Shown: in pieces, positions 1-54,582 of the stretch
How the letters are laid out: every line of letters starts with the position of its first letter
Numbering within the stretch: position 1 is the first letter of the stretch
Origin: Ginglymostoma cirratum
Lineage: Eukaryota
Length of the DNA: 64,000 nucleotides
Reading direction: 5' to 3'
Assembly: GCA_024137785.1 (NCBI GenBank)
Contig: JAHRHZ010000040.1
Location: 9,527,649 to 9,591,648 of the forward strand
The notes under the pieces: model-generated
The model's database searches: none
Told to the model about the DNA's origin: nothing
What the model saw: the letters and a program-made list of their open reading frames with translations, nothing else
Program-made: the position numbers and the translations under genes

Positions 1-134
1 TCATTTCTGATGAAGGGTCTCGGCCCGAAACGTCAAGCTTTCCTGCTCCTATGATGCTGCTTGGCCTGCTGTGTTCATCCAGCTCCACACCTTGTTATCT
101 CGGATTCTCCAGCATCTGCAGTACCTATTATCTC
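1..134 (+). mobile_element. Short hammerhead-motif retroelement copy (family A, Penelope-like derived), cut by the window start
   Basis: CTGATGA (7-13), A, GGGT/GCCC stem, then GAAACGTC (27-34). The body AAGCTTTCCTGCTCCTATGATGCTGCTTGGCCTGCTGTGTTCATCCAGCTCC recurs at 13655, 32151 and 42178. Confidence 0.75.
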
Positions 135-1159
135 AGGTTCAAAGGGCTGTATAACACACTAATGGTCCTATTCCTTATATTGTATTGGAAGATCAGTGTA
201 GGAGCTAAGGTGGCTGATTCAGGGGAGGCGCCTCCAGAGTGAACAGATTCAATTTTTGAAAGGAAGAAAGCATCTATCGATCTCTTATGTTGTTGAAAAT
301 GAGGATGTGGGAGCAAAAGGTAAAGTGGAAATGGTATATCGTCAAGAAGAAACAGGTAATTAACTGTAGAGCAGAAAAAGAATTTGGCAGCCTTACTTAA
401 GTTGGTCTAGATACAAATTCTGGTGTCTGAGGAGCTAGTTATGTGGCAGGTGCGCTTAAGTCAAAGTGCACAGCTTTAAGTCAGCCAGTGTTAAATGTAA
501 ACCCAGAAATCTGGATGTTTTTGTCCCAGAATTACTAAACATGTTAATATAGGACAAGTTGAAGATTAATGCTGTAGCAGTTCCGTTCTGCAAAGTCTTA
601 TAGCATAAGCTCTGTTTATTCATTTGTCATCAATAAATCTGTCTCTAATACTCAATTAAAGCGTATTCATATCCAAAACAATCCCTTCTAACATTAAAAT
701 AATGATATAATGTCACAAATAGGAACTTGAAACAAATGAAATATTCAGTGAAAGTTCAAATTATTACTGTATCTCATTTCTAATTGACTTGGCAAGTTTT
801 GAAATGTGCAAAGATCAAATGTCATTTTGAGTGGAGTGAGATCAAAAACTCTTGAGTTATGTGGGGGAATGTACTTCTCTTTAAATTTTTGCTTTTCAAG
901 ATGATGGATAGTAGAACTGGGAAACAAAACAGTTTCCATTTTAGGCAGCATTAGTCACTTCAAGGCCAGGTAGAAAACAATTAGATGCAGCTCCAAGTTG
1001 CCTGACATCAGTATTAACAATCTGCCTGAATTCCATTGCTAAAGGTCATTCCACAGTGCATGAAGTGAAATTTTCCTTAACAGTCATTAAGCAATTGGTA
1101 ATTAATTAACAAAGTTGTGGCAATTTTTTTTTCCTAAGAGGCAATGAACATTATAAACT

Positions 1160-1169
1160 NNNNNNNNNN
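1160..1169. other. Assembly gap (10 N)
   Basis: Run of N characters. Confidence 1.
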
Positions 1170-2145
1170 TCCCTTTCTGTTTGCTGTAAACAGCTTCCTA
1201 ACAAAGACACATAGTTAAGTGAGTAATGCCTGCACTGCCTTAGTCATGTTAGATGATTGCTGGAAACCTAGACATGTTGTGAGTAGTGAGCTAGGTGTCA
1301 TCCTGGATGTCCATAGCTCCATGACAAGAACACCTGCAAGAGAGATATGAAGATAGCAGACATTGTCATTAACAAATGTTGTCTGTGGCCTTTGGAAAGG
1401 CATTTGAAGGGGCAAGCAGAAATGACAAGATCAGCTGGCCAAGAATAGAGTCAGGGGACGCAAAGACCAGCAAATGGTACACCTTCGCAGGTCACTGTCT
1501 TCATCTGCAGAAGATGCAGCAGAGTCTGCCATACTAGAACTGGGGTACTGAGTGACACCAAGCAATACTTATTACAATTGACCACCCCAGTGTAAAACTC
1601 ATCCTACTAGACGAAAGACTGCCACTAAATCCAGAAACTGGGCTGGTTCTTGCATATACTAAGTCAAGCTCTGACGTTCAATCTGCAGGGGGTGGCTTAT
1701 TGGGACCAGAATTCGGACCCACTATTGGCTATCAGTGGATGGGCCCAAATTGGAGACTCCCTGTATTAGAGATACTTTCTGTAGTATATTAGATTGCATG
1801 TATTTTGCCAACTGTGATAACTGTGTTATCACCTGTGGGTATGGGTCAAAAGTGTAACCTGGACTATTAAAAAAAGGAGACAATTTTTATTACATTTTAA
1901 AAATGTCCTGTGTACAAGAATGAACAAAAAGGAAATAAATGCTTTGTTGTGATGGGACCGAGCACTCCACTCTGTAACTGAACACTTCTGTAATGGATTT
2001 TCCAGCCTCTTTGACACTGGAGATCCCCTTGCTGGGTGCAGAGCAAAGTATGAGAGCAAAGCAAATTAAGAAAGTTCTCAATGACTGTGGAACACCTTTC
2101 AACATCAGCAGCGGGATTTGCAACTGGTTGTATTTGTGTCCTTTT

Positions 2146-2770
2146 TCTATTCATTTGTGGGATGTGGACGTCATTGACTGGCCAGTATTTATTGCCCATT
2201 CTTGTCAGCCATGAAAAGGTGGTGGCTAGCTGCCTTCTTGAACCGCTGCAGTCCACCTGCTGTGTGTTGACCCACAATGCCATTCGGGAAAGAATTCCAG
2301 GATTTTAACCCAGTGACAGTGAAGGAACAGTGATATATTTCCAAGTCAGGATGGTGAGTGGCTTGGCGGTGAACTTGAAGGTGGTTGTGTTTTCATGTAT
2401 CTGCTGCCCCTGTCCTTCTAGATGGAAGTGGTCGTGGGTTTGAAAAGTGCTGTCTGAGGATCTTTGTTGAATTTCTGAAGTATATCTTGTAGGTTGTACA
2501 TAGTGCGGCTACTGAGCATCAGTGGTGGAGGAAATGGATGGTTGTGCCAATCTAATGTGCTGCTTTGTCCTGGATGGTGTCAAGCTTGTTGAGTGTTGTT
2601 GGAGCTGCACCCCTCCAGTCAAGGGGGGAGTATTCCATTGCACTCCTGACTTGTGCCTTGTAGATGGTAGACAAGCTTCGGCGAGTCAGGAAGTGAGTTA
2701 CTCGCTGCAGTATTCCTAGCCTCTGACCTGGTCTTGTAGCCACTATGTTTATGAGGTCAGTCCCATTGAG
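2146..2770 (-). mobile_element. 5'-truncated CR1/L2-group LINE, 3' fragment
   Basis: Minus-strand ORF 2552-2743 (LSTIYKAQVRSAMEYSPLDW...LNKLDTIQDKA) resembles a LINE ORF2 C-terminus. The same 3' region recurs at 56540-56970 (-) and 27795-27910 (+). Confidence 0.75.
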
Positions 2771-4223
2771 TATGCCAACATAGATCCAATTACTGATTTT
2801 TGAGATGAGTAATTCTGTAAAAAAAGTCTTAGCAGAATTATAACATGCCTATAACACTACCCAGGAAATGATTTTAGATACGTATGCCTAAATGTTGTCA
2901 CAACTCTTCTTTCCTTCACATTGTTCCTTGAGTCCCAACTCTCATCTTTAGTTGTGATTGACGGGCATTCAAGGTTGTCAAATTTGTCAATGTTATTCCA
3001 TTATTCATCTACAGTGACAATGATTTATCAGCTACAGAAAAGGGATCAAAGGGGATGTTAAAGTAATCAGTTAGCTATCAATATAATAATATAATAATAA
3101 TTTTCAATGATTATAGCACTGTAGCATATTACCACAAAGATGTCTCCTAAATTTCTGATTCATAATATGTTCAGAAAATGTCATCAATCCTATGCCTGGA
3201 AAGGGAGATTTAGACTCCCAAAAACCATTTTTTCTCTTCTTTGAGGTACAGGTGGAACCAATTCATACCTGATCTTATACTGAGCTTAACATAAGATGTA
3301 GACTTAGAGTCCAGCCTGCCTTCACGGCCATGCCCAGCATTAAACTAAAGTTACTCCCAGCTATTACTGGAGCTCATTACTAGTGCCAAGTGTTAAATGG
3401 TATGTTAATATAGGGAAGGAATCTGATCTCTTCTACTTATATGCTAACTTGCAACATTTAAATTTAGGTTTCAGCAAAGCACTGCTTGAAGTTTACATCT
3501 TTCAAAGAAAAGATCCTTCCTTGAAACCAAATGTTCAAGGTTGGAATAAATATAGCCTATTTAGATCAAATAGATTACGTTTACAGAAGTTCTTTCCAAG
3601 CAACAGATTATTGACGCATATCAGTCTCAGAAATCGTAATGGAAAATGAAGTTAATAAATGACAGTTGTATTTTTTCTCAAGTAGCACTATTCAAGGTGT
3701 GGCTTTCTGATGACTTTGAGCAAATGCTCGGCATTCCTAGCCTGGGGCATCAAAGAACAGATATCGTAATTCCAGAAAATTATGGATCAGGATTTACATA
3801 GAATCTGGGGCAAAAATGTGACCTCGCTGCACCCATTTTATGAATATAAAACAGGTATAGCAAAGCAAATTTCAGAGACTAGTATTCTGTGTTCTACTGG
3901 AAGCAAAGAGGCATCCCAGCCAATTTTAGATCAGGCAATTTTTCAGTACTTAGGTAGATTGGGCCTGAGGTTTATTTCATATGTAAGGGAAGAACTTAGT
4001 GCCTGCTTTATGGGCCTTTTACAGGAATTAGATAGGCATGATCAGAGTAGGAGTTAGGATTGTTACATGTAAGGTTCTTCAGTGGCTGCCAACAAAAGGT
4101 CAATAACAACTCCCAACTTTCTGAGATTGATATCTATTAATAATCTGTTGCTTGGAAAGAAGTTCTGTAAACTGTAATCTATTTGTTCTAAATGGGCTAT
4201 ATTTATTCCAGCCTTGAACATTT

Positions 4224-4582
4224 GGTGGGTAGGCAATGGCCTAGTGGTGTTATCGCTGGGCTGTTAATCCAGAGACCCAGATAATGTTCTGGTAATGTTT
4301 GAATCCTGCCACTGCAGCTGGTGGAATTTGAATTCAATGAAAGTACCTAGAATTAAGAATCTAATGATGACCATGAACCCATTGTCGATTGTTGGAAAAG
4401 CCCATCTGGCTTATTAATGTCCTTTAGGGAAGGAAACTGCATTCTTACCTGGTCTGGCCTACATGTGACTCCAGACCCACAGCAATGTGGTTGACTCTAA
4501 ACTGCCCTCTGGGCAAATAGGGACGGTCAATAATTGCTGCCTGGTCAGTGACGCCCTCATCCTGTGAATGAATAAAGAAAAA
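4224..4582 (+). mobile_element. tRNA-derived SINE with a LINE-derived 3' tail
   Basis: Pol III box A TGGCCTAGTGG (4237-4247) and box B GTTTGAATCC (4297-4306). The tail resembles the 3' end of the LINE at 2146. Other copies lie at 28945, 31795, 37220 and 56230. Confidence 0.8.
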
Positions 4583-7122: not shown

Positions 7123-7206
7123 TCTCCTGAATTTGTTCTGGCTCTTGACCTGGAAGACCCTGGACCATCAAATAACAAATACATAAAGACAACTCTCCTC
7201 AATACA

Positions 7207-7311
7207 GGTTCTGAGGAAGGGTCACCGGACCTGAAACGTTAACTCTTTTTTTTCTTCACAGATGGTGCCAGACATGCTGAGCTTTTCTAGCAACTTTGTT
7301 TTTGTTCCTGG
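7207..7311 (+). mobile_element. Short hammerhead-motif retroelement copy (family B) with 8-bp target-site duplication (TSD)
   Basis: GGTT-CTGAGGA-A-GGGTC-ACCG-GACCT-GAAACGTT-AACT, flanked by TCAATACA at 7199-7206 and 7312-7319. Confidence 0.8.
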
Positions 7312-8371: not shown

Positions 8372-8833
8372 ATGTCCACTGGGTCCGTTAGCGATGCAGA
8401 AGACCTTCAGGAAATGGAAGTGCTGGGAGCAGAGGGCGAATGCGACGGGCTAAAGAGGAAATCGAACAAGGATTTCTGCACTTCCAATGACAGCAACGAA
8501 GACAGCTCCAATTATGAGCACGAGTCCCCAAAGAAAGGCAGGGGGGCTTCGGGAAAGGGCCGCAAGACGGCCTCCAAGAAATCCTCTCTGAATGGGGTGA
8601 CCCAGGAAGGGAAACAGATCCAGCGTAATGCTGCAAATGCCAGGGAGAGGGCCAGGATGAGGGTGCTCAGTAAAGCCTTCTCCAGGCTCAAAACCACCTT
8701 ACCCTGGGTTCCACCAGACACTAAACTCTCCAAACTCGACACCCTCCGGCTGGCATCCAGCTACATCGCCCACCTGAGACAGATACTAGCCAACGACAAG
8801 TATGAGAATGGCTACATTCACCCAGTAAATCTG
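8372..8833 (+). CDS. TCF21: Transcription factor 21 (capsulin/Pod1/epicardin), coding exon 1 including the bHLH domain
   Basis: ATG in context GCTACCATG. Translation [14 protein letters not shown]...[71 protein letters not shown] matches TCF21 ([14 protein letters not shown]) rather than musculin. Phase-0 donor CTG|GTAGGA at 8833/8834. Confidence 0.97.
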
Positions 8834-11774: not shown

Positions 11775-13653
11775 AGTTTGCTTTATATTTAAAAGTCTGT
11801 AGCCGTGTGGGTACATCTTACATTCTTTCTCATCTTGGGCCAGTCATATTTGTATGTCTACCCGCATGTTTGTGCTGATTGATTGTCGAAAACAGGCTGT
11901 TTCTAACAGATCCCAACCTCCACAATAGACGCAACCAAGTGACAACAGTAATGATTTGTTTATTTCCCCCACTAAAAGGATAAGAAGGAGATATCTCATG
12001 TTATTGAGTCAGGACTCAAAGAAAACAAACATCTGCACCAGCTTTGCATCCTTGGAGCTCAGGCATGGCCGCTGACCCTGCGGAAAAAGAAGTTCTGATC
12101 TTAAAAACGAGCAATAAAAACCTTTTAAGCATAATGTCGCCTCGTTAACAAAGAAGCAGGGCAGCTGTAGGCTTTAAGTTCAAGGTGATTCTAACGGTAA
12201 CGCGGTTAAGTGCTGCAAACTCAGTTCTGCCAAGTTGCAGGGAGGTTCTACAGGTTTCTAGACGAGGTGGCATTTTAAGGAATTTCAGATTCTAACAGAA
12301 ACAGGTACCAACCAGGAACAGAATCGCTTCATTAGATTTCCCCCTGTCCTGTTACTAACTAAACCACATGTATTGGCAGAGGTCTCCTAAGGCCATTGCC
12401 ACCTGGACTTGTAGCTGACCCCAAGCAGGTTGGCAGAGGTCAGTACCTTTGGCCGGCTGGGCAAAGTACAAAGTCCAGATCATTATTCAGTTATGCATTG
12501 TTAGGGCATTCGGGCATTGGACAATCCTCAACCCCACAATCCCGTCCCACCCCCCACCCCCACTACCCCACATCTCATTCGCACCCGATGGCTATTTAGA
12601 CAGAGGGATCAGCGATGTCAAGTATCCATAATCCGTGGAATTTCACACCAGTGAGTCACCGACCAGATTAGCTTTCATTGTATAGTTCATTCGTTAAAAC
12701 TTCAAGCATTAAAATATGATCTTAAACGGAAACACATGTTAAGGCACGTCTAAGCAACAGGCCGTTTTGGTCGTGGCGTTGTAGCGCACTCAAGGTGTGG
12801 CTGCCTGGAGACATTGTCACTGAAATTGCCTGCCAGCATTCATTGAAGATGCCGCAAGGCTCTGCGGTGTCTATAGCGCTTTAGCTAAAGCCCTCACCGA
12901 ACAGTTGACGGTGAGTTCAAGTGCTACTTAAAAGGATATCACCATTTAAATTCACCATTTCACCATCACAGCTGGAGCTATGAAGAGAAGATCTGAAACA
13001 CATCTGGGGGCTTTCTGAGACACTTTCTCACGGGCTTCGCAGACACCCCAATTCTGGAAATTATCTGAGTACTTCCTAATAGTGAGTTCCGTGCTCCTCA
13101 ACTTTAGAGGAGCCGGCAGGAGAAAAAAAAAGACCAAACCGAACAGCGCCGACTACGGCAGCAGAGGAGGCTGAGGTGAACTGAGGTCCATCAGGATCTC
13201 TTCCATAAGGCCTCCAGTACTACAGCCAATAACCTTTACAGTCCCCTTCTTTGCGGGCAGTCAAAAACCTGCTGCTGTGTGCCCGCAAGAAGCACTGTAC
13301 AACTTCATTGGAAGTGGGTGTAAAGTTCCCCCATATACAGCTCCATGAAAACTGTGTCTATTTGGCATGTTAACGCTGCAACTACAACATGATCGAACCA
13401 TATTAATCATCACTTAGTCTGAAATTGTGAGCTAATATCCGGCCTTTCAAACTGGCATTTCTTATTAACAAGGCACCCATTTAATAGCTGTTGATTTAAA
13501 GTACTTGTGTTTTGATCTTATACATTTTTTTATTTTGAAAGTGAAATGGAAAAGCGGTATCTTCACTTTTGGTTACAGAAAGGCAGTAACAAACAGGTAT
13601 TTAACCTTTAAATTGTTGATTATGCCAACCCTGTCCTTGGTATTTTTTTCAAT

Positions 13654-13745
13654 TTGAAGAAGGGTCTAGGCCCGAAATGCCAGCCTTCCTGCTCCTCTGA
13701 TGCTGCTTGGCCTGCTGTGTTCATCCAGCTCTACACCTTGTTATC
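13654..13745 (+). mobile_element. Hammerhead-motif short element (family A), decayed core
   Basis: TTGAAGAAGGGTCTAGGCCCGAAATGCC followed by the family A body. Confidence 0.75.
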
Positions 13746-15299
13746 AATAATTCATATATTGGGGGAGATTTTTCAATTTTATTAGTCTCTTTTTGGTTTG
13801 TTCTAAAATATTCACTATTTTAATTTCAGTTTTAAAATCTGACTTACTTATATGATAGTTTTACTTTATTTTAAGCTTAACTTCCCAATGTATTTCTTCT
13901 CCTGTGCCAAGAGCACCCTACACTCCATTATTAAACTGGGCTGCACACCTCTTAAATTTGTTTCTGGTTGGTTTCAACCCATTATCAAAGATTGGTTTTC
14001 CACTCAGCCACGAGACTAAACACGACTGTTAACTCTATTATCTCAATGGCATTTGTAGATCAAAATTTAACAGTTTTGTTGGTTTCCTGTTTTAAGTACA
14101 AAATTGCAAATAGAATAACCAATCAGCAGTCTAGCAGAGACTGTACACCAAACTAATCTGTCACATCACTAACATTCCAATAGCATGTTTTTATTTGAAC
14201 TATTCCTGAATATGGACCTTTGGTTCTCACTATATGGTATTCTGTTTGTAAGAACAGAAAAATGTTTGGAACAACCTTGACCTGTCATATTCCACATACC
14301 ATATTCCTGAGATTTCAATTACCCCAACCATAAAATCTGTTTCTAGAGCACACAAAACAACACTTTTCACTATCTCAGTACATGAGACCACAATAAATCA
14401 AATCAAACTACCTCTCAATCCGTAAAGGGATACGTTGCTACTTGGTGTGGGTATGTGATTTTTTTAAAACAAAAGTAGCAAATAAGCTGATTTTAATCAT
14501 TTGGGAGTTTGTACTACACCTGTTTCTCACAGGGATGTTTTGATTAAAATTGAAGGATTAAGAAGTACTGTATGCTTCTATGTCCATAAAGCCAGTTACA
14601 CTGTTCTGAATCAACAACTTATCCGATTCTTTTTAAAGATGTGCAACAGTAACAGTTTTGTTTTCTGTGAGCCTGTTTCGTACATCTATTTCAGTGCTCC
14701 TTTCAAGCTTGTTAATGTTGTGCTCATTCAGTTCCACAAATCACCTAATCACATCTCCGTTATTTATTGCTTTCAACATGTTAATGACCTATTTCATGTG
14801 CCCTTTTGATCTTCTTCCTTACATAGAAAAATCAAATGCACTCTGTAACATAAAATATAGCTATATTGATACTTCTGTTTTGCTGCAAATCACCTGCTAC
14901 TTTGCAGCAATGCCAGAGAGGCTTTAAGATCCAAAGACCTACAGTGTGCAACTCATAGGTCCTCATACGCATTGTGAATTCAATATCTGTGCAGCTTAGC
15001 TCCAATGGCATGCCCAGTTGCATTTAAAAAGTGCTTGGCGATACATTCAATCTCCTGGACACTTTGTAAACCTAGGCAGAATCTTCTGTAATAATTAGTT
15101 TGTTAAAAAAAGACACTTCCGCAAATGCTCCAAAAATATTATAAACATATTTAAGTGGAAAGATTATGGTTGGCAGCCAAGCAAATTCATTAAGACATGG
15201 TATCGCAAATCAAACTGTGAACCTACTGATCTCAGATACAACAGTCTCTTGTTTTTTTTGGGTTTTCAGTACTAGAATCATTCTTATCAATTATAACCA

Positions 15300-23852: not shown

Positions 23853-23910
23853 AACAACCTGTTGCCCTTTTCTATGTCTAGATATCAATTAATCAATTAA
23901 AAGCCAGCAC

Positions 23911-24010
23911 TTCTGAAGAGGGATACCTGAACCCAAAATGTTAACTCTGCTTTCTCTCCATAGACGCTGTCAGACCTGCTGAGTTTTTCCACCAATTTCT
24001 ATTTTTTATC
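23911..24010 (+). mobile_element. Hammerhead-motif short element (family B), decayed
   Basis: TTCTGAAGAGGG...CCCAAAATGTTAACTCTGCTTTCTCTCCATAGACGCTGTCAGACCTGCTGAG. Confidence 0.7.
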
Positions 24011-24894: not shown

Positions 24895-25026
24895 CAGTTT
24901 TGAAGACGAATCATACCAGAATTGACCAGAAACTGTTTTTCTCTCTGTACAGATGCTGCCGGACCTGCTGAGTTTCTCCAGCTTTCTGAATTTGTTTCAG
25001 ATTTTCAATATCTGTTGTATTTTACC
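24895..25026 (+). mobile_element. Hammerhead-family short element (family B-like), decayed
   Basis: CAGTTTTGAAGA...CAGATGCTGCCGGACCTGCTGAGTTTCTCCAGC. Confidence 0.6.
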
Positions 25027-30035: not shown

Positions 30036-31334
30036 AAGATAAGTTTCTTTGCTGTCTTCAGCACTTAGCCTCTATTAAGCTGTTTATGTGCAAAACACTC
30101 GGTGGAAGGAAAATTAGATGGACTCCATGTCATACTAGACAGAAGCTGTCAACCACGCCATCTAAAGAGAGATGCATCTCACTGTTTACTTCTTCAATAT
30201 TACCTTCATCTCTGCATCTCCATGCATTGCTGTTCTTCTAGTTCCAAATGGATAACGTACTGATTTGCTCTGAGTTTGGGATGTGCTTGAAAAGTAGTGT
30301 GGGTGAAAATGAAAGCTGTTGTGAGAGCCTCTGCGCTGACTGCCAAAGTCAGCAAAACCTTTCGTTATGAATTCTAAATAAGAGTAAAATTGGACTTGAT
30401 ACATTGAATCTTGTTTCTGCCTCCACAGATGCTGCCATATCGCCTGAGTATTTTCCAAGCAGCTTCTATTGTTATTTGAAACCCTTTATTCCTTTGCCAT
30501 TGACTTTTTTCAGACTCTGAGACAGGACAAGGCATGCCTTTCAGTCTATTGTATAACTTATTAAGCAGTTTAGCCCTGTTAATTCAAGGTCACCACTAAT
30601 CTCAATAATCCATACTGATCCCTATAGTCAATACATGAGGGCATACTGATTTTCAGCAGTGGCTGGAGTCCTTTGTGGCCAGGGTGAGTTTAACTGTGCT
30701 GTTCCTGATGCTGTCATCAGAACTCCTCAATAAAAAATGCTACCAGCCATGAATGTCTCGCTGCTGTTCAATCACCATAAAAAGAATCATATAAGGCTGT
30801 ACTAAAGACTTCAATGAGCATGGTTCAGAGCACCCAAGACAGACTTTGGTCCCCCTGTATCCCAATTTGTCAACAGTCCCAACCCCTACCCATGTCCTGT
30901 CTTCTTTCCAGCCTTCTTGTTCTCCAGCTTCTCCCCTTTAGACCTAGCCATCTGAGCCCCTTCCCCACACCAGCCTACTCCCAGCTCAGCCCTGTGCCTC
31001 AGCCCCTGGCTATCATGAGTCTTTCACAAAATGTTGATTACCAGGGTCACTTCCCAAGGGACTGCAGCTATGACCTTCTGTTGCTCGAATCACAGACTGT
31101 CCATTTGGCTGGCTGCTTGGTGGGAAACACAAGAAAAAATGTTCGGGTCAGCAGGACCTCAACATCATTAGCTAGGGTGGTCACACTATGTGATTTTTGA
31201 CTCGAACCATGGTCATTCTCTCTCTATAGAAAAATAGAGCCATCAAATTCTGAAAGATATTCAGGTCAAAGTTAAAATCAACTTTGAAGATGACCAGTGG
31301 ACCACCATCTGCAGGTTTTCTGAAGGATCCTCTT

Positions 31335-31765: not shown

Positions 31766-31794
31766 TTCTCTCTCACAAGACCCTTACATCCGGG

Positions 31795-32340
31795 AACTAG
31801 TAGTGTATGTGTAACGTCACTAAGACAGTAATCTAGTGCCCCAAGCTTTGTTCTGAGCACTTGGGTTCAAACCCAATACAGTAGAAGGTGAAATTTGACT
31901 CCATTGAATACATGAAAATAAAATTTAGCTTAATGGTGATTGCTGATTGTTGTAAAAATCAATGTATTCTTTAGGAAGCAAATCTGTTTTCCCTACCTGG
32001 TCTGACTTATATGTGAGTCCAGACCCACAGCAGTGTGATTGACTCTTAGCTGAAGTCTGGGCAACAAGATAACAAGGTGTGGAGCTGGATGAACACAGCA
32101 GGCCGACCAGCATCATAGGAGCAGGAAAGCTTGACGTTTCGGGACTAGACGTCATTTCGGATGAAGGGTCTAGGCCCGAAATGTCAAGCTTTCCTGCTCC
32201 TATGATGCTGCTTGGCCTGCTGTGTTCATCCAGCTCCACACCTTGTTATCTCAGATTCTCCAGCATCTGCAGTTCCTATTATCTCTGGGCAACAAGGTCT
32301 GGGTGATAAATGCTTGCAGCCAATGAACAAATAAATAAAA
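31795..32340 (+). mobile_element. Decayed tRNA-SINE (4224 family) split by a nested palindromic insertion
   Basis: GGGTTCAAACCC box B, then TTAGGAAGCAAATCTG...CCAGACCCACAGCAGTGTG before the insertion and the tail after it. Confidence 0.65.
32069..32283. mobile_element. Head-to-head (palindromic) double copy of the family A element with 13-bp TSD
   Basis: 83-bp inverted arms at 32068-32150 and 32168-32250. TCTGGGCAACAAG occurs at 32056-32068 and 32284-32296. Confidence 0.9.
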
Positions 32341-35650: not shown

Positions 35651-35912
35651 CACACTCTTCCCTCAGCTACCTTGCACTCAGTCTACCTCTATTAACCCAC
35701 CAGCCTCCCACCAAGGTTTATGTGCTGCCACTCTCACTGTTGCTTGCAACATTATCCCTCACTTACTCTCACCTCCTCAACCCCCAACATCTCACACCAC
35801 TAGCTGAAGGGCTGAAGAGGTCACAGCAGTGTGGCAGTGAGAAAGGGACTCATTGAGTTCACTGCAGGGAACATCTTCAAAGTGGGCTTCCTTTGAAGAG
35901 ACTTTGCAATGA

Positions 35913-36052
35913 TATAAACTTGGTTATAGACAAAAATACTGCAGATGTTAGAATCCAGGAAGACAAACAGGAAGCTGGAAGGACACAGCAAACCAGGCAG
36001 CATCTGGCAGATTCCAGCATCTGAAGTTTTTTTGTCTCTAACCAAGTTTATA
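35913..36052. repeat. Fold-back element with about 43-bp inverted arms, related to the hammerhead-family tail
   Basis: TATAAACTTGGTTATAGACAAAAATACTGCAGATGTTAGAATC pairs with GATTCCAGCATCTGAAGTTTTTTTGTCTCTAACCAAGTTTATA. Confidence 0.8.
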
Positions 36053-37221
36053 CCACTGCGAACTCTCTTCAAAGGATATCCACTTTGAAGAAATCCCCTG
36101 ACTCCCTCAGACATGAACTCAGTGAGACCCTTCTCACTGTGACACTGCTGTGACCTCTTCAACCCTTCAGCTATTCAACCACACCATGAAACAAGTACTG
36201 AAGAAGGGTAATACCCAAAAAGTTGGCTGCTCCTTTTCTCCAAATGCTGCCTGACTTGATGTATTCTTCCAGCCACCTGTTTGTCTCACACACCACTTAC
36301 CCTGCATGGCCTCTGTAGTGCCTCCCCACTCCCTCAGAACTCCACCAGCTATTACAGCACTAACATTATTGCCACCCACTTTCATCGCACTCAACTTTAC
36401 TCCCACCCCGAGAAGGATGGAATTCTGGTTCTCGCTGAAGAAAGCTGCAGCCATTCTGCAGTGATATATCCATGTCCTGATAACTGAGGAAGTACCACTC
36501 TTCATTCCACTGCGTCTCTCATATTAACTCTTCTGTCGTTGCATGAATGACACCACTTCTAACCACCAGCCAAAGTTTCCCTCTGTCACCAGGTAGTTAG
36601 TATCTCTACCACATTCACAAGGAGATACTTCCTCAACCTTTGAAGATGAATGTGCAACGGCTACAGAGGAAGCAGCGGCAAGTCTGCCTCCTGCAACATG
36701 TCCCACCACCACCCCAGTTACTGGCAACTAGATAGAACACCTGAGGCTTCTAGATTGTGCTGGACATCTTAATGTGACAACTCTGCAGCTGGCTGAGGAG
36801 GAAAGCCCCTCCCCCTCACACCCTCACTGACAATCAACACTCAGGACCTTTGCCTACATGCGCAGGGAAGAAAGAAGCGACAGATACGGATGAGGGACAC
36901 GACGGCCTTTATTGCCCAGATGCTGCAGCAGTGCAATGAATCATGCATCTGTCTGGGTGCCTCCATGCACAGGGTGGTGGCTGCCACAGGGATCCAGGCC
37001 CAGCACCCTCAGGGTCTGCAGGAGAGCTGCACATACCAGCACATTGTGCACAGCTATGAGTCAAGTGCTGGAAAAGTGGGATTCGAACAGTTCAGGAGTT
37101 GTTTTTGACTGGCACAGAATCAATGGGCCAAAGGGCTTTTTTCAACACTGTAGACCTGTATGACCCTCTGACTATGTCACTCAGTTGCCCCAGCTATGGA
37201 TTCTCAGGACCAAAGTAATCC

Positions 37222-37590
37222 TTCATTCATTCATGTGATTAGGGCATCACTGACCAAATAGCATTTATTGTCCATCCCTAATTGCCCAGAGGGCGGTTCA
37301 GAGTCAACCACATTGCTGTCGGTCTGGAATCACATGTAGGCCAGACCAGGTAAGGAAGGTAGTTTCCTTCCCTAAAGGAAATTAGTAAATCAGATGGATT
37401 TTTCCTACAATCAACAATGAGTTCATGGTCATCATTAGATTCTTAATTCCAGATAGTTTATTGAATTCAAATTCTACCATCTGCTGTGGCGGGATTTGAG
37501 CCCAGGTCCCCAGGATGTTATCTCTGGATTATCTCTGGATCTCTGGGTCTCTGGATTAACAGTCCAGTGATAATACCACTAGGACTTTGC
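37222..37590 (-). mobile_element. Near full-length tRNA-SINE (4224 family)
   Basis: Reverse complement of 4224-4582; ends TAATACCACTAGG (box A on the minus strand). Confidence 0.8.
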
Positions 37591-38970: not shown

Positions 38971-39852
38971 CGAGTCACTTACCCTTCCTACCCTGAGTGT
39001 GGGTGCAGTCTTTTTCTTCAGCATTGTACCCTTATAATTTCCAGCATGATGAAAGGCAACAGGGAGCACTCCTCATTTACTGGTTTGTAGCCTCAGCCTC
39101 TGTATATCGGTGAACCGCAGAACATTCAGTCAACCCCATGGCCTTCACAACGCCCCAGGCCCCACGCAAACTGTTTACATGAGCTTGAACCTGTCCATCT
39201 ACCCCAAACCCCCAACTACTTCCATTACCAACATTACCACAACAATTCCCTTTCCCCTTAATTTCTGTGAATGGTAACTAAGGATAGATCATAACCCACA
39301 CCCTTGAGCAACCTTACTGGACAGACTTGGATGAGAAGCGCTTAGATCTTGACTGGTGGCTGTTTATTTGCCCTGACTATGTTAGCCCATTTCCCCCGAG
39401 CCTGGCCACGATAGAGCCACATGACTGACTGTGACCCACTCCATGGCTTGCAGCGACCTGGCCCCCTCACCAGAGAACACTTCGACTGGGCACCTGATTG
39501 TGACAGTTTTAGGAGGCTACCCTTGATGTAGAATGCCAGGACCTCCTGACTGATAAGTGCCTCCCTGGGTTTCAGCGAAAAATACCCCCCCAAGCCTTTG
39601 AGACTTGTTTGTTGTTTGCCGCAAATGCAATATATTTGTCACATAAACTGTTGGCATATGGAACGGGTGTGGGATTGACATAGCACATAGCTGTACAGCA
39701 AGATGTTCACCCCATTTGTCTGAGGATTGTTGACGAGCAAGTCAAGCTGCCTAGGTGTGCGTCTGATCCAACTGGCAAGGCATGGATTCTGTGTGCATTC
39801 AGGTAGACGCTAAGTGAGTTCTAGGAGAGTAAACAAACACTCCTGAGAAGTA

Positions 39853-39939
39853 ACAAAAACAAAGTTGCTGGAAAAGCTCAGCAGGTCTGGCTGCACCTGT
39901 GAAGGAGAAAACAGCGTTAACGTTTCAGGTCCGGTGACC
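39853..39939 (-). mobile_element. Hammerhead-motif short element (family B) with 13-bp TSD
   Basis: Reverse strand reads GGGTCACCGGACCTGAAACGTTAAC. CTCCTGAGAAGTA occurs at 39840-39852 and 39940-39952. Confidence 0.85.
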
Positions 39940-40296
39940 CTCCTGAGAAGTAGCCTGGTGCAATCCATGGACTGGCTGCCTGTCTCTCCTCATAAAATGT
40001 CTCCACTGTAGCCTTTCAATGTTAATTGCCGATACTCCCAAAAAGCAAGTCTGTGCTTCCTGAGTGTGCTGCCAGTGTTTTGGAGAGATGCCACGATGGG
40101 TTGGCAGGTGCCAGATGCCAACGTCCATAGATGATGAGTTCGCATGGCTAGTGCTCATGGATCATCAGTTTGGTTGAATGCAATGTGGAGGTGCTTCAGA
40201 GCAAGCAGTGAGCTGAATCCACCAGGTACCTGCTCAGGTCCATGTTGAGTTTTGTTGACATCAAGCTTGTTTGATGCTTTGATTTAGCTTATCACT

Positions 40297-41450: not shown

Positions 41451-42177
41451 AGCTTGGTAAGATAGAAAGTTAAATGTAAACAAGGTGATTAGGTCAACAA
41501 CATGGTGGTATAGAATGAATTGTCCCTCTTAATTGGCAACTTGCTGCTGCGTAGTAAGAAAATCAAACCACTACTTATGAAAAATATAAATTTGAAGCAA
41601 ATTGCTCCCGACATCAAGCCAGGCCTTACTAGATTTCTTGTCCAATTCTGCCGCACATCTTGGTACGGCCAACATTGCCCACATCCCTATAAGATCTTAC
41701 CTCTGAGTTACTGTAGTTGAATCCGAGACCATGTCTGTTGAGTTAATGTCTTGAATTTTCACTGTAGTGAGATTGTAGAACCCTTGAGTTTTTGGCAAAT
41801 TGATGTTTCTCTGATTTGTTTCATCATGGGAACTGACTTTCAAGATAATCAGAAGGAAATATTGAGAGTGGAAGTTGTCTGTCTGTGCTGTTGTTGATGT
41901 ATCCTCTTTTACCTCTGTCTGTTACTCTGCCAACCAGCTATTAAAATATGTTCATTTGTATATTCTCAAGTCTAACTCCATTGTCTTTTCAAACTGGATA
42001 TTTGCAGGCAATCCTTTCTTATCCAAGATTACATTATCTCAGACAAATGTAAATTGAAACAGGAAATCTGAGTTTCTTGACCTCAACTCAATAAGTTGTT
42101 TTCAATATCTTTAGGTGATTTCACTTCAGCAAGTCTTGTTGGTTCCATATTGGTTTTACAAACTTTTCTAGTCTGTG

Positions 42178-42263
42178 ATATCAAGGTGTGGAGCTGGATG
42201 AACACAACAGGCCAAGCAGCATCAGAGGAGCAGGAAGGCTGACGTTTCGGGCCTAGACCCTTC
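42178..42263 (-). mobile_element. Hammerhead-motif short element (family A) with 12-bp TSD
   Basis: Reverse strand reads GAAGAAGGGTCTAGGCCCGAAACGTCAGC. TTCTAGTCTGTG occurs at 42166-42177 and 42264-42275. Confidence 0.85.
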
Positions 42264-42339: not shown

Positions 42340-44665
42340 ACAAACATACAAACAGGAGCCTGTAATGGCCATTCAACACTTTGAGCTTGTTTGCTATTCA
42401 ATAAGGTCATCGCTGATAGAATTGTAACCTCAAATCTGCATTGCTTTTTATCTCACAGCCTTTTGCACCTTCCCAAACCTCCCATTGTTTATCATCTCTG
42501 CCTCAAAAATATTCAACACTTCTTTCACCAAATTTTCAGGAGATTTCTAATGACTCCCCACCCCTCAGAAAGATAAAGATTTACCTCAATCCTATCTTAA
42601 ATTGGCAACTTTTTAAACAGTGACCCCTAGTTCCAGATCCCCTAACAAAACATCTTATCCACCTCCATCCTGTCAAGGTTATGGATGTGTTAATTAATTG
42701 CTGCTCAACTAAACTCCAATGGATAAAATCTAGGTTGTCCAACCTTTCCTCATGGTCAGCTTGCTGATTTCACGCATTGTTCTAGTAAATCTTCTCTGAG
42801 CTCTATCACAGAATTATAGAACATTTAAGGCTCAAAAGGAGGCCATTCAATCCATTGTACCCGAACTGGTTCTATTAACTAGTGTTAATCTCCTGCTTTC
42901 CGCCATATCCCTGCACAGCATTTCTATCTAAATCACCATCCATTGCCCTCTTGAATGCCTGAGTTGAACCTACATCCACCACATTTCCAGGCAAAGCATT
43001 CCATACCCCAACTACTCGATGTGTGAGAAGTGTGGAGCTGGAGGAACACAGTAGGCCAGGCAACATCAGAGGAGCAGGACTTTCTGTTACTGCCTGGCCT
43101 GCTGAGCTCCTTTAGCTCTACACTGTGTTATCTCTGACTCCAGTTCTTACTATCTCGATGTGTGAGTACATTTTTTTTCTCATATCCCTTCTTTTACACC
43201 TCACTTTAAGTCTATGCCCTCTTTTTTTTTCTCTTTTACTAGCAAGAATAGCTTCTCCCTGTCTACTCTGACAAGCCCAACCACAACTCTGAAAACCTCT
43301 ATCAAATCTCCACTCAGCCTTCTTCTATCTAAGGAGAACAGTAAAAACTCCCTCAATCTATCCTCATATTTGAAGTTCATCATTCCTGGAAGCATTCTTA
43401 TAAATTGTTTCTGCACTCTCCCCAGTGCATCCTCATCTTTCCCATAATGTGACGCCCACAATTGTATATAATACTCCAGGTGAGGTCTAGTAAGTGTCTT
43501 GTATGAGTTTGACATCAACTGCCAGCTCTTGTACTCTATGCCCCATTAATAAAACTGAGAATGCTGTTTGCTTTATTAAATGCTTTCTCCACCTGTTCCA
43601 TCATCTTCAATGTTCTATGCATTTATATATCCAGCTCCATCTGCTCCTGCATCCCCTTTAGACCCGCACTCCTTATTTTATGTTGTCTTCCAATGCTCTT
43701 CCAACAAAAGTGCATCATGTTAAATGTCTCTGCGTTGCAGACTGCTCTACATATCTGCCCATTCTACCAACCTGTCAATGTCCTTTCGGAGTTCCACATT
43801 GTCCTTGTCACAGTTTACAATTCTTCCAGTTTACGGCCAACTTTGAACTTTGAAGCCGTCCTCTGCACACCAAGATCCACATCATTAATATAGATCAGGA
43901 AAAGCAGGGGTCTCAACACTGACCCTGCGGAACTCCACTGCAAACCTTCCTCCAGCTCAAAAAAAATCTGTTGACGATAACTTGCTTTTTCTTATCACTC
44001 AGTCAATGCTGTATTCATGTTGATACTGTCTCTTTTATAGCATGACCTATAATTTTTCTCACAAATTTTTTGTGGAACATTATATCAAACATCTTCTGGA
44101 AATCTATATTTACCACATCAACAGCATTATCCTCATTGAATCTTTCTGTTACCTCTTCAAAACACTCCAGGAAGTTAGTGAAACACAATTTCCCTTTAAA
44201 AAGTCATGCTAAACCTTCCTAACCAACTCATCATTTCAATGTGGTTATTCATTCTAACCCGAACAATTCTTTTTAGACATTTTTTCAGCCAGTTAGATAA
44301 ACTAGTTTATAAACAAAGCTGTAATGTTTGTAATTTTCCAGTCTTCTGACAACGCCCCCACGTCCAGAGAAATCTGAAAGATTATACCAGTGCACCCATA
44401 ATTTTAGCCCTTGCTTCCTTCAAGCTCCTTGGTCACATCTCATCTCGTGTCTGTGTCATTTCAGCTTTACTTACCACCTATCCAAGACTTTATTAATCTT
44501 CAACCCTTGCAGTGACAGAGTTTCCTCCTCTTTCACCATGGCCTGGGCAGCATCCTCTTCGTTTGTAATGACAGATGTAAAGTATTCATTTGACACCTCA
44601 GCTGTGCCTCCTGCATCCATGTGTAAATCCCTTTCTCGTCTCTTATCTGCCCTACTCCTCCTTTA
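42340..44665 (-). mobile_element. Two adjacent CR1 LINE fragments (second about 1.8 kb, from 42806)
   Basis: ORF 43201-43518 (YKTLTRPHLEYYIQLWASHYGKDEDALGRVQKQFIRMLPG), with RT motifs further upstream on the minus strand. Confidence 0.88.
43028..43153. mobile_element. Palindromic family A-type insertion nested in a CR1, 13-bp TSD
   Basis: CTCGATGTGTGAG at 43015-43027 and 43154-43166, with internal inverted arms. Confidence 0.8.
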
Positions 44666-46724
44666 ACCGCTGTGTTAAAAGCAGTAAGACATTTATATTC
44701 GTCCTTAAATAATGCTGTGCACCATACTCCAGAGTGGCACCCAATGTGAAACTCACATCTGGTTGTTTGCTAATTATTTGGAGCTTTGGCTCCTACTGAT
44801 TTTGTAAACCCTGGCAGGTTCAGTGCTCGCAGGCTATATTGGGCACCATCAATTCAAGAAACAAGATTATGACCTCTACAGATTTTGGCCACATATTACT
44901 TGAATCATAGTACTGAAAAACTTATTGTTATGAAAGTTGCAAAACATAGGTGCATGAGTGGAACTCAGTGTTCCCAGTATTACAGATGTACTTAGATAAA
45001 CAATTATTGCAGAGAGAACAAGAAAGCACAAAATATTGCACATCAACCTGTGCCATAATGCAGAAATAGAATTGAACCTCATAAAACGCTCCCAGTAAAA
45101 ATGATTAACAATCAGATACCACACTATTATTATATTTTCATGTACTTTTCATTTGTTTCCCATAGAGTTCATGATAAGTTGAGACTTGCATACGTCATTT
45201 GCGCTCATACTGATAAAATGCAGTCATTTGTGGCTTTGGATTTCTAGCACAGTAATTTGTACAGAGAAATTGAAGAAAATCTTTTTGAATTGTGTTGATA
45301 TTCTTTGAAATGGTATTATAAAACTTATAGTTTTAAAAGTATTACATGGAAAGGACTATAAAAAAGCAATTCCAATCGGCTTGAAATATTAACTTAGTTT
45401 CTCTACTCAAGCTGCCAAACCAGCTGAGTTTCTGTAGCACTTTCTATTTGTAATATTAAATGAATTAATACAATGCCTGTGAAACAAACATTTTTAAAAG
45501 AATTACGTGGATCCTTATAAGTTTGATTTGCATGAAGAAAGGGGTTTATTTTCTGATTACATGCAGACAGAATGACTTATAATCTAAGACTTTTATTTTC
45601 TGATGAGAGGACATTAGAAATGCTGGACCTGAAAGTAGTGCAAGGAATGAGGAAAGAAGAAATTGGATATCTCTTCACAGTTTGTAGCTGCTATCATCTT
45701 TTGGTTTTTACTATTTATATTTGAATTCTCTCAATCATTCAAACTACAGCCAAAGACAAATCCTGCAGTTCTGCAGCAATGAGTCCACTGATCGAAACAC
45801 ATGGCCATCTGAAGCAATTGGTAGCCTCATCACTCAGAAAGCACAAGCATTACTTGCCTGGCTTTTAGTTTTCATTACTCTATTAAGACAACTCTTGAAA
45901 CAGAGCTTAGAAAGCTTAACATTCTTATATGTGATACTGCAGCATTGCCATGTTTGTCTGTGTGTGCAAGTTGAATGATTGAGTGAATATAGAGATAAAG
46001 AAATAAAAGTAATGGTTGATGTTAGTAATATGCTGGGGGAGGCGTCCAGTGTGCCCTGTAGGGCCAGTGAGTGGGATATTTACTTTACTACTGCCCTCTT
46101 TCTCAGAATGAAAAGGCCAGGGACTGTACAAAGACCACCTCAATCATGCCACATGCTTGACAAAATGTTGCATTGTGATTATTTAAAAACAAATGCTGTA
46201 CTCTCACAAGGACAAACCTATTAAGGAGGGTGTGCATTAAGATCAATTTTAACTTTAGATAAGATTTTCAATGCATAGTATATAGTGCAATTACCTCATA
46301 CCCACAGTTTTTAGATCGAAAAAGTGTGCTGGTAACACAATGATGAAAATTTTATTAAGACTGGCAAGTAAATCAAATGCAGACTGTCAAATATGAAAAG
46401 TCAAGTAGACATTAATCATAAGCCAGCCAGAGTTTGGATATCCACTAATTAGGCTGGCAGGAAATAAGGCAGACCCGCAGTCATTAGATCATAGCACACT
46501 GGAGATGATTAGTCAAGCCCATGGATAAAGAGCTGAAGGATGGCAGCACAAAACCCTCCTATTAAAGATAGCCACAAGAGCTGCCAAACAAAGAATGAAA
46601 AGATTTTAGATTTGGACCTTTTTTTGCTGGACTGAACTGATTTCTACATAAAGAAATGATGACAACCGGGAATTTATGGACTAATTTCTCTTCAAACAAA
46701 GTAACACCACCCTTGTTTTTCACA

Positions 46725-49900: not shown

Positions 49901-50310
49901 AATCTTCCAGTGTAAGCATTATTTTGACAATGGATCAGAACTCCGAAGTATTACAAGCAATTTTTACTTTTAACTCCAGAATGTGTTGTTTTAAAAGAAT
50001 GCCAGAAAAGTTGTAGATCTAAATTTAGTGACTGCCTGATAAGGTCCATAGAATGTAACATGTACAAATTATTAGGAAAACTTCAAAACGGCAGAGACTA
50101 AATAAGAGGTTATTGAGGGGTGTCGGGTGGTGTCAGGGTGGTGGAGGTGTGAATACCTCTCCCATCACAGTGGAGAACCACCTCCATATTTCTGTTTATT
50201 CTCCAGGAATATATAACAACATGAGTTAAAAGCCAGTTTCAACTCTACAGAAGTGCACTAGTGGTACTGGCCACTCTCATGTATACCATCCTGGGTTTGA
50301 GAATTAGCAT

Positions 50311-50410
50311 CAAAAATAGAGATTGCTGGAAAAACTCAGCAGGCCTGGCAGCATTGATGAAGATAATTCAGAGTTAATGTTTCAGGCCTGGTGACCCTTC
50401 CTCAGAACTG
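50311..50410 (-). mobile_element. Hammerhead-motif short element (family B)
   Basis: Reverse strand reads CAGTT-CTGAGGA-A-GGGTC-ACCA-GGCCT-GAAACATT-AACT. A further fragment lies at 51410-51485. Confidence 0.8.
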
Positions 50411-52744
50411 GATTCTGTTGAGGATTTCAATTGTTATTGAGGGTTAGGGTGTTGTGCATGTTGCAGTAGAAGAATTATCCCAGTTAATCCTACATTCTAG
50501 GAAAGGGAAGACCCTCTCTCTCAGGAAGGGCTGGAAACCAGTTTTAAAGAAGGAATCAGGACTAAGAAACATCCATTAGCACACAAAACCAAGAATCATC
50601 AAAATTGTCAATATGACTGGAGGTGTGATGTTGTTTACAACTGAAGCTGATTGATTTGTGGGTTGTGGCCACTTATCAATTACAAAGGCCTTCGGCTTGC
50701 TAACAGTATTGGTTGTTAGGTATCTGAATAGCTTGGACTGCAAACAAGACAGAGGAAACCTAGTCAGACCCAAAGAGCAACCAACAGGTCTTCAGCAGCC
50801 AAAATCTCTCTCTCTCTCTTTTTCCATCAGTAAATACTGCAAGTAGTGACTTTGAATTGGATAAGTCAGAAACCTTTCCTTAGTGAAACAGCCACCTGTA
50901 TCCCTTGCAAACCAATGGAAGAATTTGGGAAGAGGAAGGTGAAAGAGGTTAGATCAACAAGAACTAACCCAAAAGATCGCATGAACAAGGACAACGGGGC
51001 TGTTTTCCCAGTTTTCTGTCTGCTGTGTGTTTTATTCTCCTGTTTCTGTCTGTCTGTTGATGAGAAATGGAGAGTTTATAAAGACTTTAGAGTTTTGAGA
51101 TGCAGAGTTAATTTAATTTAATTATTTACTTGTAGCTAGAATCTAATGAACTGTAATAAACAGCGATTTCTGTTACGTACAGAAACCTGGCCAATGCTTT
51201 CTACCTACCTGGGTCAGAAAATCAGGTAGTTTGATGATTTTGGGTATTTCTTTAAAAACGTTAACTTTTGTGATGATTTCAGGGATAGTGAGTAGTGACA
51301 TTATTTTGGTCAGGCTGATGTTCTTTAGGATTAGTTACATTTTCCCATGTTTCAACAATTGCAAAACCAAGTTGCTGAGGAGTCCACACTGGTGGAATAT
51401 CCGCTTTAAAAAAACCCAAAAGAACTGCGGATGCTATAAATCAGGAACAAAAACAAAGTTGCTGGAAAAGCTCAGCAGGTCTGCTGGAATATCTGCTTGC
51501 TGACTCATGAGCAAGAATTCTTTTCCCAATTGGTGTAGGTTAGGACACACTGAGCTCAGGACACCCATGTTTAAGCAGAAGTAAGGTTGGGTAGTAAAAA
51601 CTATTTGAATTGTGCAAATTACCACACAGCTTCAAAAAATTTGTTTTCGCTTACCAAGATAGGAGCATTCTTTTAGGGTGTTCACTTGCACTACTATTTA
51701 CAGACACATGGGAAGGTTTCCAGGCCTCAGCTACTCATATAGGCTCAGACTAGCTGTCAATCATCAAAGAGCTGTAAAACTTCCTGGCTTAACTATCCAA
51801 TTACCAAATGCACCACTGAGGGTCGACATGATTCTGAAATTCTTTCATTTGGTATGTCATCTTGACCCCAAGGGAACCTCACTTCCTCCTTTTGGGTTGT
51901 GACAACTTTGAATTTGGGAGCTTGCCACATAACATGCGTTCCTTATGTGCAGTGCATAACTCACCATAAAACAAATGAGCACATTGCCACCATCCGCCTG
52001 ACCGCAGCAAACACACACACTATCAATCAATCGTTCATTACTTGGAGTTAGGAGAACTTCAGCACAGTTTGCTTGCCTGCAACACAAACGTGGTAATTTC
52101 CACAAAGAGAAACAGCGGCATTAACAATGTTGACTTCTGCATAAACTTCAGCCGGTTTCTGCTTTCTTCGGGAAAGAAATCCACTGACAGCTTAACAAAT
52201 CCATTAGACGCCCTTGCATAATGGCTATAATCATTCTGAACAAGATGTAGACCTTTTTTTTCTGAAGCCAAAATACCACAATCATTTTTGCCATGTGGGA
52301 GAAATGCCCTTTTCACTACAACTGATGTGGTAATAAAGTGGTGAAACTCTATATTAAATATATATATAGTGCCCGTGAAAGATGGCAACAGAGAATGTTC
52401 TTGTAAAATGGCCATTCAGGGTTGCTGAGAATTGCCAAAAACATAGGTGGATATTTAAAGAGCTGAATGGACATCGTTGAAGGAAATGTATATTCCTCAC
52501 TTGTTAATGCCTTTGGTTTAATTTTTTGCTGCGCTATATGCGCCATTTGCAGCATGGCTGTTATTTACCTCATTTCCCATTTAAGGGAATGCAAGATAAG
52601 TTCTCCTACTGTGTTTCTGATATTTGACAGAAACAAATGGAGGCCAGACTGCTCAGACAATGTCCAAGTTTCACAGTCTCCATCCATCCCTACCACCACA
52701 TCAGAACACAGCTAAGGAATATTCTATTAGGCAAAAGGTTGATA

Positions 52745-53842: not shown

Positions 53843-53989
53843 TGAGCTATATATCCCATTGTCTTTGTAAGGAGTAGCATAACCCAAAGTTCTGCTTCCC
53901 TAAGGAAGCCTCACTGAGCAGTGCTACTTTTGTTGCAAATTGGTCAACATTGATCAGATTTTTGATGTTATTACACTTTGTTGTGCTAT

Positions 53990-54004
53990 GGTGCCCTCTA
54001 GTGT
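53990..54004 (-). promoter_or_regulatory. CTCF-like motif (reverse orientation)
   Basis: Minus strand ACACTAGAGGGCACC versus core consensus CCACYAGRKGGCRSY. Confidence 0.5.
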
Positions 54005-54447
54005 ACTATAAAACTAATAACTGAGATTGCTCATTTATCTGATATGTAATACTCATAAGGCTCAGTACAATTCCTTAAAGGCTGGAACACAACTATAATA
54101 ATTATTTTTAAATCATGTTGGAAAGAAGATGTGACCATGATATCAAGGTTTGGAAAAACCTCATCAAACACTAGGAGGTAAATAGAAAGCAATGATTGGG
54201 AACAAACTGAAAGAGTTTCATATTCATTATTTTATTTTCCAAAATGTCTATATTGCAATTCCATAATGTTAATCTTAAACATGACATCAGATTTAGGTAA
54301 ACATGTACAGAATCAAAACAGAAATTAAAGAATCTGTAGGTATCTGAAGAGAAAAAGACCAGTGAAGACAAACGTAGTCCCTTCCAATCAGAACCTGTAG
54401 TCATTATAATTTGGGACTAAAGGGATGGTCAACCAGTTATGTACATA

Positions 54448-54569
54448 GATAAAAGGTACTGCAGATGCTGGAGAATCCGAGATAACAAGCATCAGGCTGG
54501 ATGAACACAGCAGGTCAAGCAGCATCATAGGTTGCCGCTTGACCTACTGTGTTCATCCAGCCTCATGCT
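54448..54569. mobile_element. Palindromic family A-type insertion with 13-bp TSD (one mismatch)
   Basis: 43-bp arms at 54482-54524 and 54533-54575. AGTTATRTACATA occurs at 54435-54447 and 54570-54582. Confidence 0.8.
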
Positions 54570-54582
54570 AGTTATATACATA

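Follow-up and report, generated by a model that had tools for sequence, protein, structure and literature searches.

Short hammerhead-bearing repeats in a shark genome are probably front ends of a coding Penelope-like element

The window analysed here, a 64,000-nucleotide stretch of the genome of the shark Ginglymostoma cirratum (assembly GCA_024137785.1, contig JAHRHZ010000040.1, positions 9,527,649 to 9,591,648 of the forward strand), contains dispersed short repeats, the best preserved of which are headed by a minimal hammerhead ribozyme motif. Comparison with copies across the genome indicates that these short copies, which we refer to as stubs, are likely pieces of the 5′ untranslated region (UTR) and pseudo-long terminal repeat (pLTR) of a coding Penelope-like element (PLE) with a reverse transcriptase (RT) and a GIY-YIG nuclease. 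We hold with good confidence that such front ends arose by internal initiation of RT followed by run-off, and, with somewhat less assurance, we read the junctions between copies as a fossil record of hammerhead cleavage in the germ line, RT run-off at position +29 and jumping between templates. The motif and its host class are already published, as minimal hammerheads (min-HHR) in the pLTRs of metazoan PLEs (Cervera and De la Pena 2014, PMC4209133).

The hammerhead motif and its abundance

Positions in the element are numbered from C3 of the CUGA box (+1). On this scale the predicted cut follows +28 in family A, between window positions 34 and 35, and +30 in family B. Two window copies are intact, and they are the only ones that pass a minimal-hammerhead descriptor (at 7 and 7211). 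The family A stub at 2..134 (plus strand, found by profile and descriptor) starts at the window edge and runs from −4 to +128, with the hammerhead at 4..37 (helix I 4-6/35-37, core 7-13, extra A 14, helix II 15-26, GAAA 27-30, predicted cut 34/35) followed by 5′ UTR body and tail. The family B stub at 7207..7310 (plus strand; core 7211-7240, predicted cut 7240/7241) is flanked by an 8-bp target-site duplication (TSD) at 7199 and 7312. Both motifs (window 7-34 and 7211-7240) comprise CUGANGA, an extra A, a helix II of 4-5 bp, GAAA, an ACGU palindrome and a helix I of 3-4 bp. By their predicted pairing, these two copies carry a minimal type I hammerhead whose helix III is a palindrome and in which A9 is followed by an extra base, the layout that an initial annotation of this stretch had proposed, and its placement of the cut after position 34 is correct as a prediction.

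The same descriptor found 28 sites in 451 kb of unmasked DNA (seven random blocks, two of them wholly N, plus the window) and none in each of six Markov controls, all of the A and B sites requiring the extra base between 9 and 10.1. Per Mb, 169 A arms and 87 B arms were counted in the sample, a density that would put the genome total at several hundred thousand. Searching the whole genome, an exact 30-mer of family A gave 22,966 matches and an exact 35-mer of family B gave 4,709, with none for either reversed control, which bears out the very high copy number suggested at the outset.

Pairing was assessed in ten hand-picked intact representatives of four families, in which CUGANGA and GAAA are invariant (10/10, partly by construction, as they were picked by core). 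All ten have the ACGU palindrome (15.2-16.2) and no loop 3, and the first helix II pair (G10.1-C11.1) is GC in nine and GU in one. The covariation check proposed in the initial annotation, applied to these representatives, supported helices I and II: 96.7% of cells were paired, seven of the nine helix pairs changed on both sides and none of 500 shuffles reached the score, whilst slid alignments were only 15-43% paired. Non-GG variants of helix II had 3,119 exact pattern matches in the genome against 19 for the reversed control, and in 30 loci selected for a different second pair, helix II pairs 2-5 were kept in 29, 28, 27 and 25. Rfam returned no hammerhead match at E ≤ 10. Free folding produced helix II without the three-way junction in copy 1 and an alternative hairpin in the copy at 7207, these being monomer folds that are uninformative for a dimer ribozyme. 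At least two further hammerhead families occur in the genome (loci L310-L339): family D, which has a 6-bp helix II, an A-rich body and a TATA-like box at −47 and is weakly similar to the nuclease, and family E, which is related to A and B.

The shark motif shares with the published min-HHR (PMC4209133) the core boxes, the extra base between 9 and 10.1, the G10.1-C11.1 pair, the palindromic 15.2-16.2, a short helix I and the lack of loop 3, and in both cases most motifs are single and dispersed, from truncated PLEs, with inverted pairs also present. It differs in the length of helix II (4-5 bp here, 7-8 there), in abundance (22,966 exact matches for one subfamily, thousands reported there) and in the genomic footprint at the cut site described below, none being reported in the portions of that paper available to us. 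Cartilaginous fish are unmentioned in those portions and in two supplement files, and a literature search that lay outside subscription journals and Repbase found neither a description of PLE hammerheads from sharks nor one of a footprint left in a genome at the cut site.

The parent element and the ends of its stubs

The initial annotation had called for a parental Penelope with RT and GIY-YIG bearing the same terminal repeat, and such an element was found. An 886-aa frame reaches Pfam cutoffs for RVT_1 (aa 398-541) and GIY-YIG (aa 772-849) and carries a CX2-5CxxC linker and a CCHH motif; stop-free frames of 886 and 981 aa were recovered, and a first look at the genome gave 44,929 RT candidates. 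Many pattern-match loci of both families continue upstream into the open reading frame (ORF), and at one locus the family B tail also continues into the ORF start (L047). A search for the ORF N-terminus found 25 loci (24 displayed): seven begin at −4 to 0, cross the stub and reach an ATG at ~+167, and two further loci retain 3′ UTR upstream of the stub. The stub sequence stands before the ORF start (~+167) and again after the 3′ UTR, and a partial tandem (L182) has a hammerhead at each end, one upstream and one downstream of the ORF. The element unit is ~3.4 kb, as inferred from two copies, and partial tandem pLTRs, inverted 5′ copies, a tail of 30-40 bp and TSDs are all present. These features make it likely that the stubs are 5′ UTR and pLTR pieces of this coding element, in line with the Penelope origin first suggested.

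Judged by 19 long loci, whose best pairwise matches are mostly 95-99.7%, family A is young; family B is older and frameshifted, with ~62% amino-acid identity to A in in-frame blocks. What had been described as two subfamilies with the same core and pairing do share these, yet belong to two different coding PLE families. The closest named homologues are uncharacterized carpet-shark proteins (77-89% identity), followed by invertebrate proteins (~50%); no named reference PLE proteins were among the matches of this homologue search, and a PDB sequence search with the PLE protein gave one weak, unrelated match only. The single ORF with RT, C-terminal GIY-YIG, CX2-5CxxC linker and CCHH motif resembles endonuclease-bearing (EN+) PLEs of the Neptune/Nematis type (PMC8557442), and the element may be Neptune-type, a label based on the linker motif, which that paper gives for both Neptune and Nematis. 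Unlike the PLEs it describes, many insertions here consist of the pLTR front end alone.

Short and long copies of family A were compared by haplotype and tree (49 short and 85 long copies, seven adjoining N excluded, the long set being biased to young copies). Every haplotype with at least three short copies was also present among the long copies, and the largest short-only clade had four tips and support of 0. On these sequences, the short copies form no lineage of their own.

The ends of the stubs were examined in a random genome sample of 76 A arms and 39 B arms. Most arms (58/76 A, 31/39 B) have their 3′ end at one of two sites ~35 nt apart, +88..101 or +124..138, a spacing that matches the known PLE tail. 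Counting only arms that start between −100 and +60 (62 A, 35 B) and taking a uniform distribution as the expectation, 5′ ends piled up at −6..0 in 21 A arms (2.7 expected) and 16 B arms (1.3 expected). Further piles in this sample, at +27/+28 in family B and +33..35 in family A, were rejected, being alignment breaks in diverged copies or beside N runs. A TATA-like box is present at −34 in 62 of 169 A motifs, at −32 in five of seven long B copies (by eye) and at −33/−34 in two of five E motifs, and the bases around −3 fit what we take to be the initiator consensus. As the pile lies ~30 nt after the box, the −4 boundary probably marks where transcription begins from a TATA/initiator promoter located in the upstream pLTR. 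The −6..0 pile is upstream of the cut, so the templates behind it would not have been cleaved, and with a start at −4 most templates would be uncut. Among 16 N-terminal loci, seven show a piece of the ORF fused to a copy whose first base lies at −5 to −3, which is the expectation if RT runs off the RNA end and jumps. An excess of G directly before C(−4) (51 of 100 listed, compared with 39 of 200 at the next two positions) suggests a copied cap, and only suggests it, because inspection of 20 of these loci showed an untemplated G in nine, a G templated by the flank or partner arm in eight and an unclear case in three.

The two 3′ end sites recall Poseidon_Ac (PAc), a PLE of the green anole, whose RT initiates internally in vitro at two tail sites on an uncut RNA template (Frangieh et al. 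2024, PMC11167929). In both systems two internal RT start sites bound the tail, uncut RNA is the main template (in the shark by our reading of the ends), and the priming of both target strands reported for PAc fits the head-to-head arms seen here. PAc belongs to a different clade, and the shark ORF starts ~140 nt past the cut, whereas that of PAc starts inside the hammerhead. In the one reconstituted system the hammerhead is dispensable for insertion (PMC11167929). A start within the pLTR, as inferred here, is shared with Penelope of D. virilis (Schostak et al. 2008, PMC2377424), which differs in having a TATA-less internal promoter and an intron, the shark box being upstream of the inferred start and outside the stub. 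Penelope needs a partial tandem for expression, and the origin of PLE tandems is left open in the available text of that paper.

Junctions at the predicted cut and competing explanations

With a family this young and tens of thousands of copies to compare, single-base statistics become possible on where template RNAs start and where RT re-initiates. Apparent starts, called where three upstream bases did not match the element, were corrected for the chance of passing this filter at 40% GC. Family A showed 1,810 starts at −4 (~3,550 after correction), 1,131 at +7 (~2,900), 194 at +21 (~380), 203 at +25 (~590), 91 at +27 (~200), 138 at +28 (~310), 602 at +29 (~1,340), 185 at +31 (~470), 150 at +33 (~540) and 234 at +38 (~520), the counts at +21 (internal deletions included) and +25 (degenerate anchor) being upper bounds. 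The spike at +29 alone is not decisive, because the AAG start at +7 is also high and two of 15 viewed +29 matches were small indels. Two further tests bear on this, the first of them on what stands in front. At A-free +29 loci, 27 of 30 were true junctions, and in eight of these 27 the copy was preceded by element sequence in sense orientation (tail ends, the ORF start or the RT region). At +27/+38 this held for one of 38 (Fisher p = 0.003), a set from which a substitution and a duplication had been dropped.

We also searched for head-to-tail joins, as an RT start site followed by +33 within 13-14 bases, which gave 99 matches at 84 loci, tallied by eye. The join was at +29 or +29/+30 in 46 loci, ambiguous by microhomology in 11, at +30/+31 in seven, at +32/+33 in five, at +28 in one and further upstream in 14, where for the most part a young tail meets a copy of an older subfamily. 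Short tandems make up several of the loci, and their periods of 67-68 or 102 nt equal the spacing between +29 and one or the other RT start site; they span +29..+96 and +29..+131, and since they begin after the cut they contain no hammerhead core. From these junctions, the hammerhead likely cuts a few percent of templates and so creates a genuine RNA 5′ end at +29. In family B, 37 matches were found at the cut site and most of the ten viewed were microhomology joins or deletions, leaving that test powerless, so that the footprint is a family A result only. As a separate observation, 10 of 42 loci have a young tail end and, directly after it, a copy of an older subfamily that begins at +22 to +26 (mostly +24), within the GAAAC box; nested insertion that favours a site in the hammerhead core is a possible cause.

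Under the explanation we prefer, the element's own RT would initiate inside the RNA, at a site either ~95 or 130 nt from its beginning, and run off the RNA 5′ end, leaving a stub. Most templates would be uncut and start at −4, and a minority would be cut by the hammerhead, probably as a dimer via the ACGU palindrome and perhaps assisted by a protein. On reaching either kind of RNA end, RT would probably jump to another start site or another element RNA, and such jumps would assemble the tandems required for PLE expression. The stubs would be single-round by-products, likely dead on arrival because they lack the upstream TATA-like box. If this is true, a ribozyme that barely cuts in vitro is active in vivo, and run-off with re-initiation is a mechanism for forming the tandems on which PLEs depend; the junction record names the exact RNA ends to seek in gonad RNA.

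Several observations weigh against this explanation. Minimal hammerheads cut poorly in vitro (PMC4209133), and lizard PAc has no RNA-seq reads ending at the cut (PMC11167929), where shark genomic junctions pile up. Two raw RNA runs on the pLTR-ORF junction showed no start or end pile; depth was nearly equal on both strands, with passive transcription dominant, and the runs are uninformative on starts, ends and strand. No complete intact ORF was seen in any single copy. Six short copies of family D start variously from −18 to 0, and these scattered starts, with the box at −47, are a misfit with one start site. A-rich microhomology inflates AAG starts, of which the frequent +7 start is one, most of the ten family B matches viewed at the cut site were microhomology joins or deletions, and 11 ambiguous and 14 upstream loci count among the 84 head-to-tail joins.

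In a rival explanation, both 5′ piles would be RT stalls at the hammerhead helices combined with microhomology joining, with neither a transcription start at −4 nor cleavage at +29. The piles do lie on both sides of helix I, microhomology favours AAG starts, family D stubs start near the 5′ edge of the motif despite their more distant box, and the RNA runs lend no support to RNA ends. An RT moving 3′ to 5′ would, however, reach helix I at +32/+33 and not at +29, and the head-to-tail loci divide 5/84 to 46/84 between these positions; junctions with zero or one A before G31 (seven) are much rarer than those with both A's; and the −4 pile lies beyond the structure and, in three families, at the spacing expected from a TATA box, with the G excess expected from a copied cap (notwithstanding the eight templated G's among 20 viewed). 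We regard stalling as unlikely on this evidence. Still harder to sustain is the reading of the −4 boundary as a 3′ splice site, with stubs derived from spliced RNA with a tiny first exon. It draws on D. virilis Penelope, whose intron end maps to helix I (PMC4209133), and long B copies have a branch-point-like motif, a pyrimidine run and CAG directly before the hammerhead, yet family A has no AG there and shows the same pile, and no common first-exon sequence precedes the short A copies, where the junctions are flank, partner arm or untemplated bases. We judge it the least credible of the alternatives.

The initial annotation had itself favoured non-autonomous, retrozyme-like elements. Spelled out, this would be a dedicated family, retrozyme- or SINE-like (short interspersed nuclear element), in which units of 100-140 nt are themselves transcribed, self-cleaved and re-copied. 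Stubs do outnumber ORF-bearing copies, only 23/76 A and 5/39 B arms extending upstream of the pile, short tandems are present, and non-LTR retrozymes derived from PLE pLTRs have been described in vertebrates, including one cartilaginous fish (bioRxiv 10.64898/2026.07.22.740005). Like the stubs, those retrozymes are non-coding, hammerhead-bearing and drawn from pLTRs; as described in the preprint's available text they are tandem units, each with a complete hammerhead, whereas stubs lie scattered, singly or as inverted pairs, and are flanked by TSDs. The short tandems start past the cut and so hold no core, and the window, to which the search for arrays was confined, has no array of such units. 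Moreover, the stub is the coding element's own 5′ UTR and lacks the upstream TATA-like box, and neither the haplotypes, shared with long copies, nor the tree, without a supported short-only clade, gives the short copies an independent lineage. A separate retrozyme-like family is thus largely refuted, and we consider it very improbable.

Remaining copies and other features of the window

The initial annotation counted at least 13 related short insertions at 14 places, and all 14 match search profiles made from ten window copies (E 1e-39 to 4e-8, best arm per place). Its view that the best-preserved copies keep the hammerhead layout holds for the two intact copies (at 1 and 7207), the others being mutated, starting inside the motif or lacking it. 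Most window copies have TSDs of 8-15 bp and several are head-to-head pairs; no element tandem arrays and no PLE RT or nuclease remnant were found within the window. Among the genomic loci viewed, one family A stub (L214) lies between direct repeats of ~60 bp, far beyond that usual TSD length.

The core is mutated in the copies at 13654, 23911, 32153 and 50311. These are an older family A stub at 13650..13747 (plus strand, profile match), a B-like stub at 23909..24010 (plus strand) with a mutated GAAA box and a 9-bp TSD with one mismatch, the plus arm of a head-to-head family A insertion at 32066..32287 (13-15 bp TSD; minus arm 32066-32147 from +14, plus arm 32153-32287 from −4), and a family B stub at 50309..50410 (minus strand, from −4, 9-bp TSD) whose helix III palindrome is broken by one change. 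The arms at 32069, 39853 and 42178 start within the motif: the first is the minus arm just given, the second a family B stub at 39852..39943 (minus strand, from ~+8, 13-bp TSD) without a CUGA box, its seeming CUGA belonging to the TSD, and the third an older family A stub at 42177..42263 (minus strand, from +6, 14-bp TSD). Copies entirely without a hammerhead are the head-to-head older A-type arms at 43028..43157 (~12-bp TSD), a family B fragment from +60 to +133 at 51410..51483 (minus strand, 14-bp TSD) and the head-to-head family A arms at 54447..54575 (11-bp TSD). Degenerate B-like stubs, all on the plus strand, lie at 24895..24998 (a seed of the B profile, with an independent blastn match to other loci at E 3e-17), 30374..30472 (decayed hammerhead, profile E 4e-8) and 45378..45451 (profile E 3e-9). 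The same profile search added one unlisted insertion of a third PLE family (C) at 35780..36287, in which inverted arms reach into the ORF start and are followed by a stub starting at the hammerhead (tblastn with the N-terminus of family A matches weakly, at E 0.001 and 0.002).

The first coding exon of a basic helix-loop-helix (bHLH) gene is present at 8372-8902 on the plus strand (Pfam HLH, E 9e-18), which we take to resemble TCF21/musculin, and the intact family B stub at 7207 sits ~1.1 kb upstream of it. An element of ~700 bp at 3526-4226, with terminal inverted repeats of ~108 bp, is like a DNA transposon or a miniature inverted-repeat transposable element (MITE), no TSD being seen. Another dispersed repeat, presumably SINE-like, occurs at 4340-4584, 28950-29111, 31969-32064, 37214-37459 and 56233-56405, and the PLE insertion at 32066 lies within one of its copies. 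Repeat fragments at 20120-20217, 24349-24588, 31376-31766 and 38552-38967 resemble, we assume, the 3′ ends of CR1-type long interspersed nuclear elements (LINEs). Finally, a 27-bp minisatellite of ~4 copies is found at 61189-61318.

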